DNA of 64,000 nt from Candidatus Heimdallarchaeota archaeon (GCA_021399345.1 JAAFKI010000154.1:1-64000); one strand, 5' to 3'; counted from the first letter of the stretch, positions 10,470 to 56,677 are shown. The notes: generated by a model from the sequence alone, not told the origin. Program-made: numbers and translations.

Positions 10470-12281
10470 TCAGTCATCGTACGGAGATTTAAGTAAAGAT
10501 TTTTGAGCTAATGATAAAATCTGGTTTACAATCTCTTCGTTTACTGATAATAGTTTCTTTAAATCTTCAACTTCTGCTTTAGCAATTTTTTCAATAGTAC
10601 CATACTCCAACATTAGTTTTTGCACCTTAGTTTTACCTATACCTTTTATTTTTTCAAAAATGGAATCTTGAATACTTCTTAATCTTAGGATTTTATGATA
10701 GTTTATAGCAAATCTGTGAGCTTCATCTCTGACATTCTGAACCAGTTTCAAAACTGGCGAATTTCGTTTAAATTCAATTGATTCATCTGACCACTCAACA
10801 AAAATTTCTTCATTTTTCTTGGCAATACTAACAATAGGAACGGATATTTTCAGTTTCTTTAGCACTTTTAATGCAATGTTTAACTGTCCTTTTCCACCAT
10901 CAATTATTAGAAGATCAGGTTTAGGGTCTGATTTCAATGTTTCAGAACTATATCTTCGACCAATTACTTCCTCCATCATTGCATAATCATTTGGTTCTGT
11001 ATACGTTTTTCTAATTCTAAACCGTCTATACAATTTCTTCTGAGGAACACCATTTTCAAAAACCACACAAGACCCTACAGAATGCTCTCCTTTAAGTGTA
11101 GAAATATCAAAACCATGTATTATAATTGGTATCTTTGTTAATTGAAGATCATTTTTCATTTCGTCTAATATCTTCTCGAAGTCCTTTTGATATTGGATAT
11201 CTCTTTTGAATTTTTGTAACTCGTTTCGAGCGTTTTTTTCTGCAATTTCAATTAATTGTTTCGCAATGGTTGTTTTGAATGTTCTAATGTTGAAATCCTT
11301 TGTTTCGAGAAAACGTTCGGTGAATGCTAGACCCACTAGAATACTGTATTTGGGTTTTTCTTCACCATAGATGAAGGTAATAACTTCTCCGGTGGTTCTA
11401 AGAGGATGGCCTTCCTCTTTTGAATAAAGGTAGTTAGTGATATTGTGTATACGATGATTTCGCATCTCCAATTTACTTAATGCTATGTCGCCTTCATATT
11501 CTTTAAACGCCAATACATCAATATTCTTTTGCTTAGAGTGCAAATCATCCTGAATATTCAAAATAGTTCGAACAGCGTGAGTTAGATCACGTAAATTAGC
11601 AGCTTTCTCAAAATTAGATCCCTGAGAGGCTAACCACATTTCTTCCTCAATGCTATCTAGTAAATCAGCTACATTTCCTTTCAGAAAGGATATAACATTT
11701 TTCACGATTTTTCCATATTCCTCGGGAGATATGTTGTTCTTACATGGTGATAAACACCTTCCCAACCTTTCTCTCATACATCTCGCAGATGAACCTTTTT
11801 TAGCTAAACGTTCCATTGTTTTTCCACAATTACATATAGGAAATAATCTTGCAACTAATTTAGCAGTTTGTTTTACCATCGTATCTTTGGGAAAAGGCCC
11901 AAAGTAAACACTCTTGCTGACTCGTTGGTCTGTTTCTCTTGCAAACAAAAGCTGAGGATATTCCTCTTCCATGGTTATTCTGATTAGCAAATGCGATTTA
12001 TCGTCTTTCAGCATACTGTTCAGTTTCGGAGACAGTTGTTTAACCAATTTTTTCTCCAAAATCAAAGCTTCAGATTCATTTCTAGTTATAATCCAATCTA
12101 CACGATGTGCTAGTTCCTGTAATTTATCTTCTTTAAGATTAATAGTTGTTTGAAAATGTTGCTTTACTCGATTCCTGAGATTCTTAGCTTTGCCGACATA
12201 AATTACCTTCTCTTCTTTATCTTTTATCAGATAAACGCCTGGTTCAGTAGGGATTTCTTCAAGATCGGAAAAAAGACTCAT
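10470..12281 (-). CDS. uvrC: Excinuclease ABC subunit C
   Basis: GIY-YIG (PGVY...YVGKAKNL), FDIS, IDGGKGQL, RDEAHRFA, HhH. Confidence 0.97.
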   Translation of the reverse strand: MSLFSDLEEIPTEPGVYLIKDKEEKVIYVGKAKNLRNRVKQHFQTTINLKEDKLQELAHRVDWIITRNESEALILEKKLVKQLSPKLNSMLKDDKSHLLIRITMEEEYPQLLFARETDQRVSKSVYFGPFPKDTMVKQTAKLVARLFPICNCGKTMERLAKKGSSARCMRERLGRCLSPCKNNISPEEYGKIVKNVISFLKGNVADLLDSIEEEMWLASQGSNFEKAANLRDLTHAVRTILNIQDDLHSKQKNIDVLAFKEYEGDIALSKLEMRNHRIHNITNYLYSKEEGHPLRTTGEVITFIYGEEKPKYSILVGLAFTERFLETKDFNIRTFKTTIAKQLIEIAEKNARNELQKFKRDIQYQKDFEKILDEMKNDLQLTKIPIIIHGFDISTLKGEHSVGSCVVFENGVPQKKLYRRFRIRKTYTEPNDYAMMEEVIGRRYSSETLKSDPKPDLLIIDGGKGQLNIALKVLKKLKISVPIVSIAKKNEEIFVEWSDESIEFKRNSPVLKLVQNVRDEAHRFAINYHKILRLRSIQDSIFEKIKGIGKTKVQKLMLEYGTIEKIAKAEVEDLKKLLSVNEEIVNQILSLAQKSLLKSPYDD

Positions 12282-14254
12282 CTAGTTTCCACCATTTTCT
12301 CAAGTTCTTTAATTTTATCACGATAAAGTGCAGCTTTTTCAAAATCTAAAGCTCCAGCAGCTTCAGCCATTTTTTCCTTCAAATCATCAATTACATAAAG
12401 AATATCTTGACTAGTCAAATCATCAGGAACTTCTATTTTCTCTTCCTCTTTAGGTTCAATTTGCATCAATGTTTCAACAATGGATCTTATTTCTTTACGA
12501 ATAGTTGTAGGTTTGATACCATGTTTTTCATTATATTCTTGTTGAATTCTTCTTCTTCTATTATTCTCTGTTATAGCTTCTTTCATAGAACCTGTAAGAT
12601 TATCGGCATACAAAATAACGCTACCATGAACGTTTCTGCTAGCTCGACCCATAAGTTGAATTAGCGAACCTTTAGAACGCAAAAATCCTTCTTTATCTGC
12701 ATCAAGTATTGCAATAAGAGCTACTTCAGGAAGATCCAATCCTTCTCTTAGAAGGTTAATTCCAACTACCACATCATATTTGCCTAATCTAAGTTCTCTT
12801 AATATCTCAATTCGGTCCAAAGTGTCTACCTCATGATGTAAATAAACTGACTTAATATTCATTTCCAGAAGATAATCAGATAGCATCTCTGCACTCTTTT
12901 TAGTGATAGTTGTAACCAAGACTCTTTCTCCCTTACTTACTCTTTGGTTTATCTCGCTTACAAGATCAGTTATTTGTCCATCAGTTCCTCTTACATCTAT
13001 CTTTGGATCTAAAAGACCAGTTGGACGAATGATTTGTTCTACAATTTGCTCAGATATATCATATTCATAATTTCGAGGAGTGGCACTTGTGAAAATAACG
13101 TTGTGCATATATTTCTCCGTTTCTTCGAATCTGAAAGGACGATTATCAAATGCAGAAGGAAGTCTGAAACCATGTTCAATTAGATTCTTCTTTCTTGAGT
13201 AATCTCCACCATACATTCCACGAAGTTGAGGGATAGTTAAATGTGATTCATCAATGATAAACAAGAAATCTTCGGGGAAGTGGTCAAGCAAAGCAAAGGG
13301 TTTTTCACCAGGTTTTCTTCTATCAAAATGACGAGAGTAGTTTTCTATTCCAGAGCAGCCACCTGTTTCTCTTAATAATTCCAAATCATATAGTGTCTTT
13401 TGCCTCAATCGATGTCTTTCCACTACCTTGTTATCCTTTTCAAATTCAGCTAAACGCATATCTAGTTCTATCTTTATATCTTCAAGAGCTGATTCAAAGA
13501 AAGCATCATTTGCAAGATATTGGGTTCCTGGATAAATAGACATTGCTTCATATTCTTTCATCATTTCTCCTGTAACTGAATGTCGAGAAGTTAAACGTTC
13601 TATCTCGTCTCCAAAGAACTCAATACGATAAACGCAATCACTATATAATGGAAAAATATCAATGGAATCACCTCTAACTCTGAAGGTTTTACGATCCAGA
13701 TTCACATCGTTCCTTTCGTATTGGTTTTTGACTAACTCTAACATTAAATCCTGCCTATCTAAAGAATCACCTACTTTCAAAGCTATTCTTCTAGAACGAT
13801 ATACATCAGGAGGACCAGTACCATAAATACAAGAGACAGTTGCACAAACAATTACATCGTCACGAGTAGCTAAAGCTTCAAGAGCTGTATGACGTAAACG
13901 CTCAATTTCTCGATTTATGTCAACATCCTTCTCAATGTAAAGATCTTTAGAAGGAAGATAGGCTTCTGGCTGATAGTAATCATAAAAACTGACATAATAG
14001 CACACTGCTGCAGAAGGAAACAAGGTTTTAAATTCACCAAAAAGCTGTGCAACAAGAGTTTTATTAGGACCCATAATCAAAGTAGGTTTCTTGATTTCAT
14101 CAATAACAGAAGCCATGGTAAAAGTTTTTCCAGAGCCAGTAACACCTAGAAGTGTTTGATGTTTATGCCCTTTGTTTATTCCTTCAATCAATTGAGCTAT
14201 TGCTTTAGGTTGATCTCCCTTTGGAGTAAAAGGCGTTTCTAAATCTAATGGCAT
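12278..14254 (-). CDS. uvrB: Excinuclease ABC subunit B
   Basis: GVTGSGKT, YYQPEAY, DESH, GINLLREGLD, C-terminal UVR domain. Confidence 0.98.
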   Translation of the reverse strand: MPLDLETPFTPKGDQPKAIAQLIEGINKGHKHQTLLGVTGSGKTFTMASVIDEIKKPTLIMGPNKTLVAQLFGEFKTLFPSAAVCYYVSFYDYYQPEAYLPSKDLYIEKDVDINREIERLRHTALEALATRDDVIVCATVSCIYGTGPPDVYRSRRIALKVGDSLDRQDLMLELVKNQYERNDVNLDRKTFRVRGDSIDIFPLYSDCVYRIEFFGDEIERLTSRHSVTGEMMKEYEAMSIYPGTQYLANDAFFESALEDIKIELDMRLAEFEKDNKVVERHRLRQKTLYDLELLRETGGCSGIENYSRHFDRRKPGEKPFALLDHFPEDFLFIIDESHLTIPQLRGMYGGDYSRKKNLIEHGFRLPSAFDNRPFRFEETEKYMHNVIFTSATPRNYEYDISEQIVEQIIRPTGLLDPKIDVRGTDGQITDLVSEINQRVSKGERVLVTTITKKSAEMLSDYLLEMNIKSVYLHHEVDTLDRIEILRELRLGKYDVVVGINLLREGLDLPEVALIAILDADKEGFLRSKGSLIQLMGRASRNVHGSVILYADNLTGSMKEAITENNRRRRIQQEYNEKHGIKPTTIRKEIRSIVETLMQIEPKEEEKIEVPDDLTSQDILYVIDDLKEKMAEAAGALDFEKAALYRDKIKELEKMVETR

Positions 14255-14346: not shown

Positions 14347-14670
14347 TTGATCCAGAATCCTTACCTTGACCAGTTATGTAAGTTTTTTTCTAACAAGCAG
14401 TACAAACGTATTAGTGATGTATTACAACACCTAAAGAAGCAATTCCACGGTTCTAGGTATATGGAATTCAGAAACTATTTTGATGTTCCACGTGAAGAAA
14501 TCGATGAAAAAGGTGTTATGAATTACCTTGAGGGACTTTACAGGAAAATTGGAGCTCCAAAGGGAAGGATAAGGGCATGGTACTCTTTACCTCATGAAGA
14601 CAAGGAGATAAAAAGAATTTGCGTTTTTTATTCTGTTGATGAAATTCAAGAGAAGCAAGCAGTTAGATAA
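14347..14670 (+). CDS. Hypothetical protein
   Basis: 107-aa ORF divergent from uvrB with normal composition. Confidence 0.65.
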   Translation: MIQNPYLDQLCKFFSNKQYKRISDVLQHLKKQFHGSRYMEFRNYFDVPREEIDEKGVMNYLEGLYRKIGAPKGRIRAWYSLPHEDKEIKRICVFYSVDEIQEKQAVR

Positions 14671-14755: not shown

Positions 14756-15016
14756 ATGGTTTCAACTATTAGTACAAAACAACTCGTTTTTGATGAGTTA
14801 AAATTTATACTACCTCATCAAAAAAGAGCTCTTCTTCTTTTAAAATCGGACATCATTAGGGAAAGAATGAAGGGATACGCATTACTAACTACATGTTTTC
14901 GGATGAGTTCTCCTGATATTCAAAATTATATTCGCAATAAGTGGAAAGAGGAAAAAGATTTGAAAGACTTAAAAAAAGCATTTATCGTGTATTGTGAACA
15001 AACATTTCTAGGATAG
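14756..15016 (+). CDS. Hypothetical small helical protein
   Basis: 86-aa ATG ORF with a TATA-like sequence about 30 nt upstream. Confidence 0.6.
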   Translation: MVSTISTKQLVFDELKFILPHQKRALLLLKSDIIRERMKGYALLTTCFRMSSPDIQNYIRNKWKEEKDLKDLKKAFIVYCEQTFLG

Positions 15017-15021
15017 ATACA

Positions 15022-15795
15022 TCAGTTGTTTTCTTCCTGCAGGGGAAAGTAAACAGGGAATATAAGACGCGCAAAATTTTGGTATATTTCAACACTATAA
15101 TCCTTCTGTTCGATTAAGCCTTCCAGTTTTACAATTTCAGATTCAGTATAACCTTTCATATCTGGAAATTCACTTTGATTACCATAATCCATAACTTTGC
15201 AAATTATTTCACCGACTTGCTCTAATTCTAGATATGATTCAATCAGGATATGGATATGAGGAGTTAGTTTTTGTGATTGCTCTTCCTCTTTAACTGAATC
15301 AGCTATTCTTATTACAGAAAGGATTGCAGCTCTTCTTGTAATATAGTCCTTTGCATAAACTACATTTTTCAATGGATAAAGAACGTCTGCATCATCTAAG
15401 TAACCTATTGCCCTAATAGCTGCATACTGAAGATCATAATCACTTTCTTCTAGTATTTTTACTAAATAAGGTTTGGACGCATAATCCTTTAAATGACCTA
15501 AAACTTCCAAAGTAGATAGTTTAATAGCCAACGAACTTCGTTCTATAAGATCATGAAGATAGCTTAAGATTTTTTCTTTAAGCTCTGGAAATTCTGAAGC
15601 ATATTCAACTATGGTTGAAGCTGCAGCATTTCTTACATTCCAGTCAGAATCTTCTATTAGTGGATAAATTTTGTTGATACTCTTTGCTTTACCATTCTTC
15701 TGTAAGAATAAAGCAAAACTAGCTCGATCTAGGGGATCGTCGCTTTTTTGTTTTCTACCTATGAATAATCCTCTAAAGAAATCTACTAAACTCAT
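15022..15795 (-). CDS. HEAT-repeat protein
   Basis: Repeats DSDWNVRNAAA, ESDYDLQYAAIRAIG, KDYITRRAAI. Confidence 0.85.
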   Translation of the reverse strand: MSLVDFFRGLFIGRKQKSDDPLDRASFALFLQKNGKAKSINKIYPLIEDSDWNVRNAAASTIVEYASEFPELKEKILSYLHDLIERSSLAIKLSTLEVLGHLKDYASKPYLVKILEESDYDLQYAAIRAIGYLDDADVLYPLKNVVYAKDYITRRAAILSVIRIADSVKEEEQSQKLTPHIHILIESYLELEQVGEIICKVMDYGNQSEFPDMKGYTESEIVKLEGLIEQKDYSVEIYQNFARLIFPVYFPLQEENN

Positions 15796-17366
15796 AATTC
15801 AAACAACCCCTCTTTAATGAGATAGCTTATAGCACCTCTTTGTGGTTGAGTTAGTTTTCTAAGAAATGTATAATCTATTTTTCTAACTTCAAACCTTTCT
15901 TCCTTTTCCTCATCTAAATCAAACTTGTAAGCGTCCTTCCTTTTTGTAACTTGAACAGCTCTTGTAACTACAGGAAGGTTATATGGCGACAAAGATTTGT
16001 ACTTTGCTTTATGAACTGCAAATAAGGTTGCAACATGAATTCCCCCTATTTTCTTGAAAACGATAATATCTGCAAAAGCTGGGAGAATTGTTTTAAAATC
16101 ATCTCTATACAATGCCATATGATTATGTAAAATGACTAACTGATCAATTCCTACACCGTACTCGTTAGCTTCAAACACATATACCTTCTTATCATCCACT
16201 TTTACATATCCTTTTGAGGAAATTCTAGAATTATCATCAAGTAGTTGCCCAAAGGTGGAATATTTTCTTCTAAACACCTTACTTACGTATTCTTCAATTT
16301 GTCTCCAGCCATATGCATAAACAGACCATATATCTGTCCATCTACTTCTGGAAGAGTGCCAATGTTCAACCACAAACTCAGAATGAGCGTTTTTGTTAAC
16401 AGCTTGTAAATCCTTAATATCATTCCATGAAAACTCTTCAAGGAATTCTAAATCAGACTTAAATGAGAAAAGCTTCTGAAATACTGTTTTCTCATCAGAG
16501 TACTTCGCAACAAGTTTATTCATCGCAGCAAGACTAAATTTACCTATAGGGGGTGCAAGGAAAGCTTTTAATTCTTTTGGATACATAATTGATTTATCGT
16601 CGTGTCTTTTTGGAAGCTTATACTCGTCCTTCTCCAGTAAATAATCAATTGCTTTTTTCTGAATGTAATGTGCAAAACCCTCACCTATAAGTTCATGGAG
16701 ATTCTTCTTTCTTACAACCTTAGCCCTTTCATTTATCAGATTAATTGCTTCTATTGAAAAATTATTGAAAAGAGTATATTTCCTAGCATCTTCTGGAGGA
16801 GTATAGAAATCTTCTACTCCTGCTTCTGTAAATAGTCGAATTACGCCTATCAAATCTTGGAAGTATTGCCAAGCCCAAACATGTTTATTTTGTGAAGTTT
16901 GGTTCAATTGAAATACATTGTTTGTCATTAGTTCTTTAAGAACTAAGTCTAATTGGTATAATTGAGCTAAAATTCTTGGTGAATTAGACTCAGTTTTTTC
17001 ATTCAAATAAGCATGAGCAAATGCATGTATAAGCATAACTCTTAGAGTTAATTCTTGTTCCTTAGTAAGTTCTTCTGGAGGAACAGAAAGATAAACAAGA
17101 GTTGGTAAAGAGTTATAGACAGTCTCCTTTCCAGTTGGAAGGAAATCGCTAATCCTAGCTGACCGAAGGTTTGTAATTTGTTCAGAAGTGAGTATAGCTT
17201 GTGGAGTCCCTGTTACCTCTACAACTCTATTAACAGAGATATGCATCTCAGGATTAATGAAAATTAATATTCTATAATTCTCAGGTGTTTCTCCAACTAG
17301 AGTTTTAAAGTCCTCCCTAGCACTGTTGTAAACTTCGATTACGTCACTAAGTTCCTCTTTAAGCAT
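15792..17366 (-). CDS. Hypothetical protein with a degenerate zincin-like motif
   Basis: MLIHAFAHAY (HExxH-like, E to A) and a downstream EGFA; ATG at 17366 overlaps the vWA stop (ORF track starts 17396). Confidence 0.6.
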   Translation of the reverse strand: MLKEELSDVIEVYNSAREDFKTLVGETPENYRILIFINPEMHISVNRVVEVTGTPQAILTSEQITNLRSARISDFLPTGKETVYNSLPTLVYLSVPPEELTKEQELTLRVMLIHAFAHAYLNEKTESNSPRILAQLYQLDLVLKELMTNNVFQLNQTSQNKHVWAWQYFQDLIGVIRLFTEAGVEDFYTPPEDARKYTLFNNFSIEAINLINERAKVVRKKNLHELIGEGFAHYIQKKAIDYLLEKDEYKLPKRHDDKSIMYPKELKAFLAPPIGKFSLAAMNKLVAKYSDEKTVFQKLFSFKSDLEFLEEFSWNDIKDLQAVNKNAHSEFVVEHWHSSRSRWTDIWSVYAYGWRQIEEYVSKVFRRKYSTFGQLLDDNSRISSKGYVKVDDKKVYVFEANEYGVGIDQLVILHNHMALYRDDFKTILPAFADIIVFKKIGGIHVATLFAVHKAKYKSLSPYNLPVVTRAVQVTKRKDAYKFDLDEEKEERFEVRKIDYTFLRKLTQPQRGAISYLIKEGLFEL

Positions 17367-18744
17367 GAAGTATACTCTCCCGTAGTATTTGCTCACCCAA
17401 ATTCTTTATTTGAGCAGGATCTATTAAGATGGGTTTGGTAATCCCTTTGAGCATTCTTTTTGTATGGATAAAAATCTCTTTGTTCCTTAGAGCTTCAGTT
17501 CCCATTAAAAAGTAAGAAATATTCCAATTCCTGGAACGATCAGCCTTTAAAGAGCTGAATATTGCGTTCAATTGTTGCAAACATTCTCTTGTATCTGCAT
17601 TTGTTTTTGTTTCAACTTCATCGAAGTATTTCTTAAGTTCTTTACTCTTTTTGAAACTAAAAGGATAGACAGGAACGTTAGGCATACCATCTGTTACTAT
17701 AGTTAATTGAACATCAATGTCTTTGTCTGTATGCTGTTTCTTTGCATGTTCAATAGCTTTCAGGATGCTCTGAACCATGTGTGTCTTTCCTCGCGCTTCA
17801 GCAGTGAGAAGAAGTTGTTCCATTTTCTTATCATCATCAACCACAAAGGGATTCTTAATTATAGGAACAACTGCTAGCTTAAACATATCAAATCGCTTTC
17901 TTTTTCGTCTATTAATCATTTTGAAATAATAATAGAGACTAAGACTTGTTAAAAGAGCTCCATCCAATCTAGACATTTTTCCTTCAAACACATTTTTTTT
18001 CATGGATTGACTCATATCAACTATCAGATAAACTAAGGAACGACGATCCTTCTTTATCCTCATAATATCTTCTTGTTTGACTTCTGTTGGAGGAATAGTT
18101 TGAGAACTAAGAACAGCACTCTTGTAGGTCTCTTTCAAACGAATTGTACCATGTAATCTTTTTTGAACTTCATCAATAGGTGCTACAGAAATCTGCTTCA
18201 TTAGATATCTACCTAAAATCTTTCCAAGAAGATCCATAACACTTTCCCGAGAAATTCTTTTCTTCCTACCAAATGCGTCAGTTATTTCTATATCCACAAT
18301 TTCTGTTAATTGACTTAATTTCTCTGCTAATTGTTGAAGATCTACAGTTCCTTCTTGTTTAAGTTCTTTTAAAAGATCTTGAATATATTTGAGAATATCC
18401 TCAACAGTCTGTAACTCGTTTCTGTTAACTCTCTCCAGGACATCAGGTAAAATTCGTTCTCCAATGAACCGAAGGAGTTTCATTTCATTAACTAAACGTT
18501 CTTCTTCTTCAGCTATTAGAAAAGTGTTCATGATTTTCTGAACAATATTGTCTACGGCAACAGCATTTTTCGCTGCAATAGATAAGACTGCACCTTCACG
18601 AGAACTTCTTCCAAGATGCGGATTCCTCCATAAGCGTAGCACTTGTGCTGCATCCTCGAATTCTAATACAAATTCTTGATTAGAATAATGCTGCAAGGGA
18701 TCAACAAATTCTGCTTCTGTTACGAAATATATACGATGGGGCAT
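17359..18744 (-). CDS. vWA-domain protein
   Basis: MIDAS DMSQS, GKT, VTDGMPN. Confidence 0.85.
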   Translation of the reverse strand: MPHRIYFVTEAEFVDPLQHYSNQEFVLEFEDAAQVLRLWRNPHLGRSSREGAVLSIAAKNAVAVDNIVQKIMNTFLIAEEEERLVNEMKLLRFIGERILPDVLERVNRNELQTVEDILKYIQDLLKELKQEGTVDLQQLAEKLSQLTEIVDIEITDAFGRKKRISRESVMDLLGKILGRYLMKQISVAPIDEVQKRLHGTIRLKETYKSAVLSSQTIPPTEVKQEDIMRIKKDRRSLVYLIVDMSQSMKKNVFEGKMSRLDGALLTSLSLYYYFKMINRRKRKRFDMFKLAVVPIIKNPFVVDDDKKMEQLLLTAEARGKTHMVQSILKAIEHAKKQHTDKDIDVQLTIVTDGMPNVPVYPFSFKKSKELKKYFDEVETKTNADTRECLQQLNAIFSSLKADRSRNWNISYFLMGTEALRNKEIFIHTKRMLKGITKPILIDPAQIKNLGEQILRESILHA

Positions 18745-18781
18745 TTTATCATCTCTAAAAGTTACTAGAAGAGTTTTAGGA

Positions 18782-20332
18782 TTAGATATAATCTACTCTG
18801 AGTAACAGTTCATACGATGGTTTTAGTTTTTCCACAACTTGCTTTCGAATGTTTTCTTTGTATTTGTCTAAACCTTCAAATTTCACAACAAGTTCAGCTA
18901 ATTCGGCATCGCTTAATGCTTTCATTTTAGATATGTCTTCGGATATATCTTGAACACTAATTGATACGTCTGATTCTTTGATAGATGTACGTAAAACAAT
19001 CTTAAGTTGCTGCAGTGCATCGTTAATCATTGAAACTGGAACATCATAAGCATTCATTGTATTTCTTATTCTTTCTAATGTAATGACGTTAATATCGGTT
19101 ATTTCATCTTCTCTTGCTTGAAGTAATACTGTTTCCCCAATGATGTTATTCATTGTACGAAGATCAATATGTGGGTTTCTTTGAGGGTCGTGAATTTCAT
19201 CTAAACCAGTATAGAAATCTGCTCTAGCCATTCTACTCTCAGAACGAACACCTTTTGCTTTGAGATTGCCAGGTAGGGAATTGTCACCTAAGAAAGCTAG
19301 AAAATCAACAGCTAATCGACTTACGAAATCAGTTGTTTCTTTTTCTAATTCATGGAGTTGAATAATGGAGGGGTTAGCAGTAATTTTTCTTCGAGAAAGA
19401 ACAATTTGTTCATCAAACATATCTTTAATGATTTGTTCTCTGCTTTCCACAGAACGAGCGGGCCAGAGAACTTCAGGAATACGATTAATGATTGGTTGAC
19501 TTTCTTCTCCAAATACTGTCAAAGGAGCATTCGATGTGAAAAGAACTGCACCATCAATATAAACTGGCTCTCCTTGAATATTGTATTTGATAACCATTGG
19601 TTCTTCAAGAAAACCCATCAAAGATTCTAGCAGGCTTAATGGAAGTCTTTGTATTTCATTAACTACAATGAAACCATGTGATAATATTCCTACTTTGTGT
19701 GAAGTTGCTGCATATGTAGTTGAAGTTTCTTTTCCAAATAATTCTTCTAAATTCTCAACACCAGCAAGAAGCATGGATAAGCTCTCAGGGTCGGTTCTAG
19801 GATCTAGTTGAGATCTTCTAACTATAGTTTTAGAAGCTTCAAGTTTTCCTAAACGACTAACAACTTCCTTTGGAGGAATGGATAACATACTATTTGTATT
19901 ATCCAAATCGACAGAGTTGTCATCTGTTGAAAGTATGGCTTCAATATTTTTTCTACAATATGGACAGAGAGATTGCATCACACGAATTCCAGCAAAGGGA
20001 TTAGCTGGGAAATTGTTCATTACATCTACTATATATCCAGCATCCTCTAAAAAGGGACATCCTTCAATATGGTATTTGGAATTATTAATTTCTCTAACAA
20101 TATGATCTAGCAAAATTCTAGCAAACAATGATTTAGCTTCTCCTGTTGGACCAGTAAGTAGAACCTTTCCACCTACGGCTAGTTTATCCATTACCAGATT
20201 TTTACCAACATCATTTCCTCTAACGCTGACGTCTTTTGAAACTCTTTCACGGAATTCAGGATTCATAAGGATTGATCTAACAGAAAATCCATCATAACCA
20301 TCCTTCATTAATTTCTGTATTGTGAGTGTCAT
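18782..20332 (-). CDS. AAA+ ATPase, MoxR/chelatase-I-like
   Basis: Walker A-like GPTGEAKS, Walker B-like IVVNEIQR, FTSN sensor-1, GCPF...CPYC. Confidence 0.8.
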   Translation of the reverse strand: MTLTIQKLMKDGYDGFSVRSILMNPEFRERVSKDVSVRGNDVGKNLVMDKLAVGGKVLLTGPTGEAKSLFARILLDHIVREINNSKYHIEGCPFLEDAGYIVDVMNNFPANPFAGIRVMQSLCPYCRKNIEAILSTDDNSVDLDNTNSMLSIPPKEVVSRLGKLEASKTIVRRSQLDPRTDPESLSMLLAGVENLEELFGKETSTTYAATSHKVGILSHGFIVVNEIQRLPLSLLESLMGFLEEPMVIKYNIQGEPVYIDGAVLFTSNAPLTVFGEESQPIINRIPEVLWPARSVESREQIIKDMFDEQIVLSRRKITANPSIIQLHELEKETTDFVSRLAVDFLAFLGDNSLPGNLKAKGVRSESRMARADFYTGLDEIHDPQRNPHIDLRTMNNIIGETVLLQAREDEITDINVITLERIRNTMNAYDVPVSMINDALQQLKIVLRTSIKESDVSISVQDISEDISKMKALSDAELAELVVKFEGLDKYKENIRKQVVEKLKPSYELLLRVDYI

Positions 20333-20349
20333 GAGCTTTACCTTTTTTA

Positions 20350-20952
20350 TTATATATTTTGATTATTTTCTTCTTCTGTAGCAAATTGCACTTGCACAGG
20401 TTTGATTTTTTCTAATAGTTTTTCTTTTTCTTCCCAAGACTTAATGTGTCCAATATGGATTACTCTCTTCAACCATTTTAGAGCTTCAAGTTGAGAAGAG
20501 ATATCGGGTATGTCAAAAAGATTCCATAGTCTATCAGTAAGACGAATGAGAGAGAGATTCTCAATTAACTCTCCACGAGACAAAGCACCTTGGAGATTTG
20601 AGTTATATGCACAGATCGCAATTGGAAGATTTTTTGTTTCAGAATCCCAAGCTATCTTTTCCCAGAAATAGTTTCTTTCATGTTTTATCATTTCTTCTTT
20701 GGTTGCATCAATAAGATATAACAACCCTTCAAATGGAACAAATTGTTTATGTTTGAATTTGAACCCTAAAGAATATGGTAATTCAGTTAGAGAACTATCT
20801 ATTATGAATTCTGAGAGAGATGTATTAGACCTCATCAGTAGAGTTCTGTTTCTAGTTGCAGGAGTATTATCTCCCAAAACTAGTATAGATACTTCTGGGG
20901 AACCTAGCTTTCTTCTAAGAGAACTTTTCAGATTCTGAATAAAGTTAGTCAT
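20350..20952 (-). CDS. Arf-family-like protein with degenerate GTP-binding motifs
   Basis: N-terminal amphipathic helix, then ILVLG, GLLYLIDA, LPIAICA, LQGALS..EL...L.L..L.DR.W, EALKWL, matching the Arf C-terminal half by eye. Confidence 0.7.
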   Translation of the reverse strand: MTNFIQNLKSSLRRKLGSPEVSILVLGDNTPATRNRTLLMRSNTSLSEFIIDSSLTELPYSLGFKFKHKQFVPFEGLLYLIDATKEEMIKHERNYFWEKIAWDSETKNLPIAICAYNSNLQGALSRGELIENLSLIRLTDRLWNLFDIPDISSQLEALKWLKRVIHIGHIKSWEEKEKLLEKIKPVQVQFATEEENNQNI

Positions 20953-21058
20953 TGGGTTTCGTTAAAAAGCAACCTATGTGCATCTTTATCAATTTTTTGA
21001 ATAAGAAGTTTTTAGAATAAGAGTAAAAGTTTAGAACTTCAATAAAAATGAAATAGTA

Positions 21059-56588: not shown

Positions 56589-56677
56589 TGGAGCCCAGAG
56601 CGTGACTTGAACACGCGACAACAGGATTTCTGAGAATTCTCTTCAGTCCTGCGCTCTCCCAGCTAAGCTATCTGGGC
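56589..56677 (-). tRNA. tRNA-Phe(GAA) with a 13-nt intron (56628-56640), CCA encoded
   Basis: CAGGA-CTGAAG[AGAATTCTCAGAA]A-TCCTG; CTGA/TCAG central helix with 3-nt bulges (BHB-type) at position 37/38. Confidence 0.93.

Follow-up and report, generated by a model that had tools for sequence, protein, structure and literature searches.

A conserved five-gene operon with an Arf-like protein and a divergent AAA+/vWA pair in part of the Heimdallarchaeia

Arrangement and distribution of the operon

We analyzed a stretch of 64,000 nucleotides from a Candidatus Heimdallarchaeota archaeon (GCA_021399345.1, JAAFKI010000154.1:1-64000; below, the window means this whole stretch) in which five adjacent genes form an operon. 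In operon order the genes encode an Arf-like protein, a divergent AAA+ ATPase, a von Willebrand factor A (vWA) protein, a protein with a predicted gluzincin fold (the fourth protein in the following) and a HEAT-repeat protein. All five are annotated as hypothetical proteins. The features are listed in Table 1. A first-pass annotation of this DNA had described five co-directional genes, which are separated by gaps of 17 and 37 nt or overlap by 8 and 4 nt. The longest open reading frame (ORF) of the fourth gene begins with the GTG at 17396, and an alignment with eight orthologues places the conserved start at the ATG at 17366. With this start the spacings are +17, +37, −8 and −4 nt in operon order and match the annotated ones exactly.

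Table 1. Features of the operon and its upstream region in the window
Feature	Position	Strand	Basis
Arf-family pseudo-GTPase, 200 aa, first operon gene	20350-20952	-	Pfam and orthologue profile
Divergent AAA+ ATPase, 516 aa, about 150-aa insert between Walker A and Walker B, helical C-terminal part	18782-20332	-	
vWA protein, 461 aa, complete metal ion-dependent adhesion site (MIDAS) motif	17359-18744	-	
Predicted gluzincin-fold pseudo-peptidase, 524 aa, C-terminal part beta-rich with no fold assigned	15792-17366	-	
HEAT-repeat protein, 257 aa, last operon gene	15022-15795	-	HEAT_2
Divergent intergenic region, 106 bp, A+T-rich, between operon and NUDIX gene; presumed promoter	20953-21058	.	

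The distribution of the AAA+ gene was determined by a profile search of 400 genomes of the Asgard phylum, whose families were coded f1, f2 and so on, with f1 being the family of the window (Heimdallarchaeaceae). Within the order of the window the gene was found in 29 of 30 genomes of f1, in the single genome of f2, in all 12 of f3 and in all three of f4; in another order of the class it was found in f6 (9/12). It is present as a single full-length copy per genome in 54 of 58 genomes from these five families and two orders, and 40 of 41 close relatives have one full-length copy. The profile search did not find the gene in f5 (0/22) and f28 (0/2), which belong to the same class, and about 315 further Asgard genomes gave no credible match, with five of them showing matches of the length of Walker A alone (E-values 7e-5 to 1e-3). 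Most Asgard lineages, f5 of the same class among them, yielded no match to the operon, which therefore does not represent a trafficking module common to the Asgard archaea.

Across eight loci, which represent five families of the window's order, the genes for the AAA+, vWA and fourth proteins and the gene at the HEAT position invariably sit side by side on one strand with little space between them, and an ORF of 249-272 aa occupies the HEAT position in all 12 loci examined from other genomes. The full set of five genes, with order, orientation and tight spacing unchanged, recurs in a complete Heimdallarchaeaceae genome (L024), in a second genus of this family (L020) and in the f6 loci L021-L023, so that the arrangement cannot be put down to chance. 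A profile of the Arf-like protein matched in 29 of 30 genomes of f1, in the f2 genome, in all 12 genomes of f3 and in 11 of the 12 of f6, with weak or no matches in f4 and f5. A comparison of coordinates puts the Arf-like gene immediately upstream of its AAA+ neighbour in about 45 genomes, among them all nine f6 genomes with an AAA+ match; in genus g3, f2 and one g7 genome it stands apart from the AAA+ gene or has the inverse orientation. FKBP-type isomerase genes are found on that side in g3 and f2 (L013 7058-7789, L014 9444-10193), and in g3 a ParB-N-like gene is located directly upstream of the AAA+ gene. The annotation had made its proposal dependent on synteny of the AAA+-vWA pair with the Arf-like, zincin-like and HEAT genes, and this synteny is kept across two orders. 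From the same gene order in both orders and the matching phyletic pattern of the Arf-like and AAA+ genes we conclude that the five-gene arrangement is ancestral to the clade and has been inherited vertically.

The Arf-like gene has ratios of nonsynonymous to synonymous substitution rates (dN/dS) of 0.05-0.16, and those of the AAA+ gene are 0.06-0.15. These values were obtained where dS is unsaturated (0.04-0.8), and both genes are under purifying selection. In a more distant genome pair the dN/dS of uvrB was similar, with dS being near saturation there. A decaying Arf pseudogene was rejected, as the ORF is intact in 57 genomes and its dN/dS is low. The class to which the window belongs is generally regarded as the closest to eukaryotes, and in part of this class the operon is nearly universal, single-copy and strongly constrained.

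This pattern bears on the question whether the operon could serve in conflict or in defence against viruses, like the ternary vWA-MoxR systems (VMAP or iSTAND type), the third core protein being the sensor. Such a system would likewise have a tripartite core, in which a constant protein joins the AAA+ and vWA components, and HEAT/TPR scaffolds and GTPase domains recur in vWA-MoxR ternary systems (PMC7159879). The operon, however, is single-copy and vertically inherited, has a constant architecture without variable effector domains and a low dN/dS, and is flanked by housekeeping genes. PADLOC returned no defence-core match; its weak generic matches were TRIP13 for the AAA+ protein and two HEAT/ARM-type models for the HEAT protein. 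We therefore rejected a defence function, which we hold to be highly improbable.

A search with the AAA+ profile against 1.84 billion cluster representatives gave 19 matches, of which four span the full length; the identity goes down to 19-20%. Between the two orders the identity is 50-58%. For the fourth protein 28 clusters were retrieved among 5.8 billion proteins, the same with a single sequence or a profile. Its homologues are all annotated "hypothetical protein", and nearly all of the named ones bear the label Candidatus Heimdallarchaeaceae or Heimdallarchaeota, with 62% identity for the homologue in Ca. Heimdallarchaeum endolithica; one cluster is labelled Thorarchaeota. Searches for related loci in genome, metagenome and viral contig collections found nothing. 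Two members of the AAA+ family with 44% identity, P0002 and P0050, carry the NCBI labels Promethearchaeota or Hermodarchaeota archaeon; either the family extends past the Heimdallarchaeia or the labels of these metagenome-assembled genomes are loose. The member with 19-20% identity, P0014, has a canonical Walker A motif and its source is solely Logan assemblies of unassigned taxon.

Domain identities and motif loss

The protein encoded by the first gene matches the Pfam model Arf (PF00025) with 24 bits at a cut-off of 22.3, the match being confined to residues 71-163 in the C-terminal half (beta4 onward). A profile of six Arf-like sequences had 76 matches in the PDB, all of them Arf, Arl or Asgard Arf proteins, with Arl3 as the best (E-value 3.3e-5). 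In the window's protein the P-loop reads GDNTPATRNRT, NKxD is replaced by YNSN and DxxGQ is missing, and G1, G3, G4 and G5 are degenerate in the Arf-like proteins of all lineages, including f3 and f6. The Arf-family profile match together with the loss of the G motifs across the family marks the protein as an Arf-derived pseudo-GTPase and not a GTPase, in agreement with its first label. In comparison with Arf/Arl GTPases (Arl3, Arl1 and the Asgard Arfs 8ouk/8oul) the C-terminal half matches their profiles and the Heimdallarchaeaceae proteins share the N-terminal amphipathic helix, whereas the four G motifs are lost. This N-terminal helix is basic and strongly amphipathic in f1 (hydrophobic moment, muH, 0.55-0.76, the top 1-3% of windows scored), weak in f3 (muH 0.30-0.52) and absent in f6, where the N-terminus is short and basic. 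Such a pattern suggests that membrane anchoring is not a conserved property of the family.

The vWA and HEAT labels are borne out as well. In the vWA protein the MIDAS residues D243-x-S245-x-S247, T321 and D352-G353 (DxSxS...T...TDG) are invariant in the orthologues, and VWA_2 matches in eight of nine orthologues, all below the cut-off and with a best E-value of 5e-5. A search of the PDB with the vWA profile gave TRAP vWA domains as best matches (E-values 0.07-0.2) across the GxT...TDG stretch. No fold could be assigned to the conserved N-terminal part of about 230 aa. The last protein of the operon matches HEAT_2 (E-value 1.9e-15) and HEAT (E-value 2.4e-6) of Pfam and shows weak NblB/CpcE-type similarity in NCBIfam.

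The first-pass annotation had inferred a membrane-associated remodelling complex, in which an Arf fold was added to a prokaryotic AAA-vWA module, and had pointed to the Arf/Sar1 coats. Taken as a coat-like complex, in which the Arf fold would recruit a HEAT solenoid and a vWA protein, it would be a prokaryotic forerunner of, or parallel to, the Arf/Sar1-driven coats. The first gene is truly Arf-derived and tightly linked to HEAT and vWA genes across two orders, and the N-terminal helix found in the window's own family would fit this idea, but we nevertheless regard it as very unlikely. Without GTP-binding or switch motifs there would be no nucleotide-controlled membrane cycle, and the helix does not extend with any strength beyond f1. 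No Sec23/24 chain is among the six PDB sequence matches of the vWA profile (E-values up to 10), and the short HEAT protein belongs to the PBS-lyase type (HEAT_2), with a weak, sub-threshold match to Adaptin_N. The five proteins have no match to a membrane-protein family, and no hydrophobic segment was seen by eye, without a transmembrane predictor having been run. The restricted distribution of the operon among Asgard lineages also speaks against a coat.

In the AAA+ protein K67 (Walker A), E226 (Walker B), N268 (sensor 1) and R284 (arginine finger) are invariant in 16 sequences including the 19%-identical member, and the catalytic residues are intact. The aspartate of Walker B is replaced by asparagine (NE, not DE) in all of these sequences except the 19%-identical member. 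An essential zinc ribbon in the insert was considered and rejected, since its three cysteines are replaced by serine in genus g3. The predicted model matches the fold of solved AAA+ proteins over both subdomains, with RavA and BchI/ChlI as the best solved structures. A profile search against the PDB sequences found nothing, and of the MoxR models of Pfam, applied to the window and to family members, AAA_5 stays below its cut-off over Walker A and AAA_3 does not match. An alignment by hhalign with eight canonical MoxR proteins from Heimdall genomes reached 77% over 44 columns comprising Walker A only. The AAA+ label holds for the motifs and for the fold, which is nearest to RavA and BchI; the curated MoxR models do not recognise the protein. 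Six matches to AAA_3, that is to canonical MoxR, are found in the window's genome outside the window (contigs C41, C55, C199, C190 and C161), and relatives have three to six; the AAA+ protein of the operon therefore comes on top of MoxR proteins that are already numerous.

These data allow us to weigh a second explanation, according to which the operon would encode a MoxR-vWA maturation chaperone, comparable with CoxD-CoxE, NorQ-NorD, CbbQ-CbbO, RavA-ViaA or the chelatases and without any kinship to the PrkA proteins discussed below. Its task would be to remodel one particular client enzyme or to equip it with a metal or cofactor, with the zincin-fold and HEAT proteins serving as client-holding scaffolds. 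In these pairs, as in BchI-BchD, an AAA+ gene stands beside a gene for a vWA/MIDAS protein, and the fold matches to RavA and BchI/ChlI favour this explanation. On the other hand the same genomes already hold the canonical MoxR genes mentioned above, to which the operon protein can be aligned over Walker A only, and the Walker B motif (NE instead of DE) and the large, cysteine-bearing insert of about 150 aa between Walker A and Walker B are unlike MoxR. The operon moreover has three extra conserved subunits, and no conserved client gene lies beside it, as its neighbours vary by family. We consider a maturation chaperone of this kind plausible, though rather unlikely.

The zincin-like label of the fourth protein fares differently at the two levels at which it can be judged. 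The structure model has a zincin (gluzincin) fold, for which there is no sequence-level support, and the HAFAH string which the annotation had seen in the window's protein is not conserved. At the position of HExxH the orthologues have QLLAM, YALAK or HTLAK, and the catalytic glutamate is never present. An active zincin was rejected for these reasons, and we interpret the fourth protein as a probable gluzincin-fold pseudo-peptidase. A profile search of the PDB found nothing, Foldseek gave no real match in the PDB, and the feature matches in the ESM Atlas are bacterial clusters without names. As an inactive gluzincin-fold scaffold we compared the M1-aminopeptidase-like domain of the TFIID subunit TAF2, which has no sequence relation to the fourth protein and a different context; the match is no better than those to active M1 and M32 peptidases.

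Comparison with the PrkA-YeaH-SpoVR triad and proposed function

The PrkA/YeaG (SpdA), YeaH/YhbH and SpoVR/YcgB proteins of bacteria, haloarchaea and some phages form a triad whose genes follow the order AAA+, vWA-type, third protein. This is also the order of the Heimdall core (AAA+, vWA and fourth protein), and in the canonical prkA-yhbH-spoVR operons, as in the core, the last two genes overlap by 4-8 nt. In both AAA+ proteins a long insert separates Walker A from Walker B, and a DxSxS motif of the MIDAS type is present in the second protein. For the comparison, triad profiles were built from the PrkA/YeaH/SpoVR sets of E. coli, Thermomicrobium, Pontibacillus and Novosphingobium. With hhalign the AAA+ protein aligned to the PrkA profile with 96.3% (E-value 1.7e-9) over 213 columns, which extend from Walker A across the insert and Walker B to sensor 1, and the distant member P0014 matches Pfam AAA_PrkA with an E-value of 0.0015. 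The vWA protein aligned to the DUF444/YeaH profile with 23.6% (E-value 8.6e-4) over 111 columns of the vWA core and to ViaA with 0.4%. The sole significant fold match of the fourth protein in BFVD is an unnamed protein of 617 aa (E-value 1e-4, probability 1.0). A length of 617 aa is also that of the SpoVR protein (PF04293, 125 bits) of the jumbo Thermus phage phiLo, whose gene stands between those for DUF444 and PrkA, and the match may well be a phage SpoVR.

Several results weigh against a kinship with the triad. Compared with the PrkA profile around Walker A, the operon protein scored 94.2% and a Heimdall AAA+ protein unrelated to it 94.0% (75 columns), so that the PrkA signal is partly generic AAA+ similarity and its specificity is moderate. 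The three curated Pfam models are blind to the Heimdall proteins. In five genomes PF08298 had no match on the operon's AAA+ protein at E-values up to 1, with other AAA+ genes there matching weakly, and PF04285 (DUF444) had no match in them at the same threshold; PF04293 (SpoVR) was found in none of 251 Asgard genomes. The PrkA C-terminal domain PF06798 is lacking in the window's AAA+ protein and in 16 family members, whereas the phage and bacterial controls have it. The alignment of the vWA protein to YeaH is weak. The fourth protein shows no sequence similarity to SpoVR (hhalign 0.1-0.2%), and no bridging sequences turned up in the profile search of 5.8 billion proteins. Its BFVD match, which may or may not be the phiLo protein of exactly this length, has a low global TM-score of 0.28. 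Finally, the Heimdall operon has two extra conserved genes, for the pseudo-Arf and the HEAT protein.

In phiLo the set is complete, with the order yeaH (DUF444), spoVR, prkA (L043, MH673673.1 35625-40573), and SpoVR-like genes are also present in smaller Thermus phages and in the Ralstonia phage RsoM2USA. Solved PrkA structures in the PDB are 9xip, 9xiq and 9xir ('Serine protein kinase', 692 aa, 30 chains), of which 9xip is not among the matches of our fold search; a SpoVR structure was not found in the PDB.

Taking both sides together, we see about an even chance that the Heimdall core is a very distant cousin of the PrkA-YeaH-SpoVR triad. The triad is the closer analogue of the operon when compared with RavA-ViaA or with coats, and the link itself is only partly supported. 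We stand on firmer ground with the more general statement that the operon encodes a remodelling complex of AAA+ and vWA proteins, to which three accessory subunits belong. It is a new system of a type, AAA+/vWA, that is itself already known. That the combination had not been described, as the first-pass annotation had supposed, agrees with our own reading, as we found no published description of the operon in the full-text literature on Asgard archaea with Arf, vWA, AAA or MoxR, and the papers on Asgard Arf GTPases do not mention a pseudo-Arf, its gene neighbourhood, AAA+, vWA or HEAT.

We therefore propose that the five genes probably encode one cytoplasmic, ATP-driven protein-remodelling complex, which is specific to a subclade of the Heimdallarchaeia and possibly tied to protein turnover. 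The AAA+ protein would be the motor, presumably as a hexamer, and the vWA protein its adaptor, gripping an acidic residue of a client or partner with the metal of the MIDAS site. Having lost its catalytic residues, the gluzincin-fold protein could serve as a scaffold binding a peptide or client. The HEAT protein and the Arf-derived protein, the latter without GTP binding or GTP switching, would be accessory subunits peculiar to this lineage, with a role in regulating the machine or in targeting it. In the operon an Arf-family fold appears to have been kept for a GTP-independent role and to be hard-wired to an AAA+/vWA machine.

The link to protein turnover is inferred from the literature on the triad. 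Strong conserved cofitness has been described for yeaG, yeaH and ycgB (10.1101/072470), PrkA of B. subtilis has been reported to be an ATP-dependent protease rather than a kinase (PMC9512850), and YeaG/SpdA of E. coli is needed for starvation-induced global proteolysis (PMC13684143). The triad functions as a single pathway with ties to ATP-dependent proteolysis during starvation and sporulation, and the three-gene core could be its cousin minus the PrkA C-terminal domain. If this link is true, a poorly understood system of starvation and protein turnover in bacteria reaches into the Asgard archaea, pared down and fitted with new subunits, and the set of five proteins would be tractable for reconstitution.

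One may go further and suppose that the pseudo-Arf and the HEAT protein are an Arf-solenoid pair independent of nucleotides, which would direct an engine for unfolding or turnover, made up of AAA+ and vWA, to its place in the cell. This engine would belong to a third, undescribed branch of the PrkA-type machinery for starvation proteolysis. Such a pair would have arisen outside, and perhaps before, the eukaryotic coats and adaptors. We offer this idea as a speculation that is quite unlikely to be correct in full; if true, it would give an archaeal example of an Arf fold that grips a helical solenoid.

Neighbouring genes and further features of the window

The genes flanking the operon are housekeeping genes unrelated to it. 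Upstream a divergent NUDIX gene is followed by genes for enzymes dependent on pyridoxal phosphate (PLP), and downstream two small ORFs on the plus strand are followed by uvrB and uvrC. The two small ORFs (14347-14670, 107 aa, and 14756-15016, 86 aa) have no Pfam match and are 52-55% identical to their counterparts in the other genus of the family (L020). The uvrB and uvrC genes (10470-14254, minus strand) are adjacent to the operon in the Heimdallarchaeaceae (L020, L024) and not in other families. As the adjacency is limited to the window's own family, we rejected a functional link between the operon and uvrB/uvrC. Far from the operon, at 56589-56677 on the minus strand, ARAGORN predicts a tRNA of undefined identity with a four-base anticodon (aaga), which may contain an intron or be otherwise odd.

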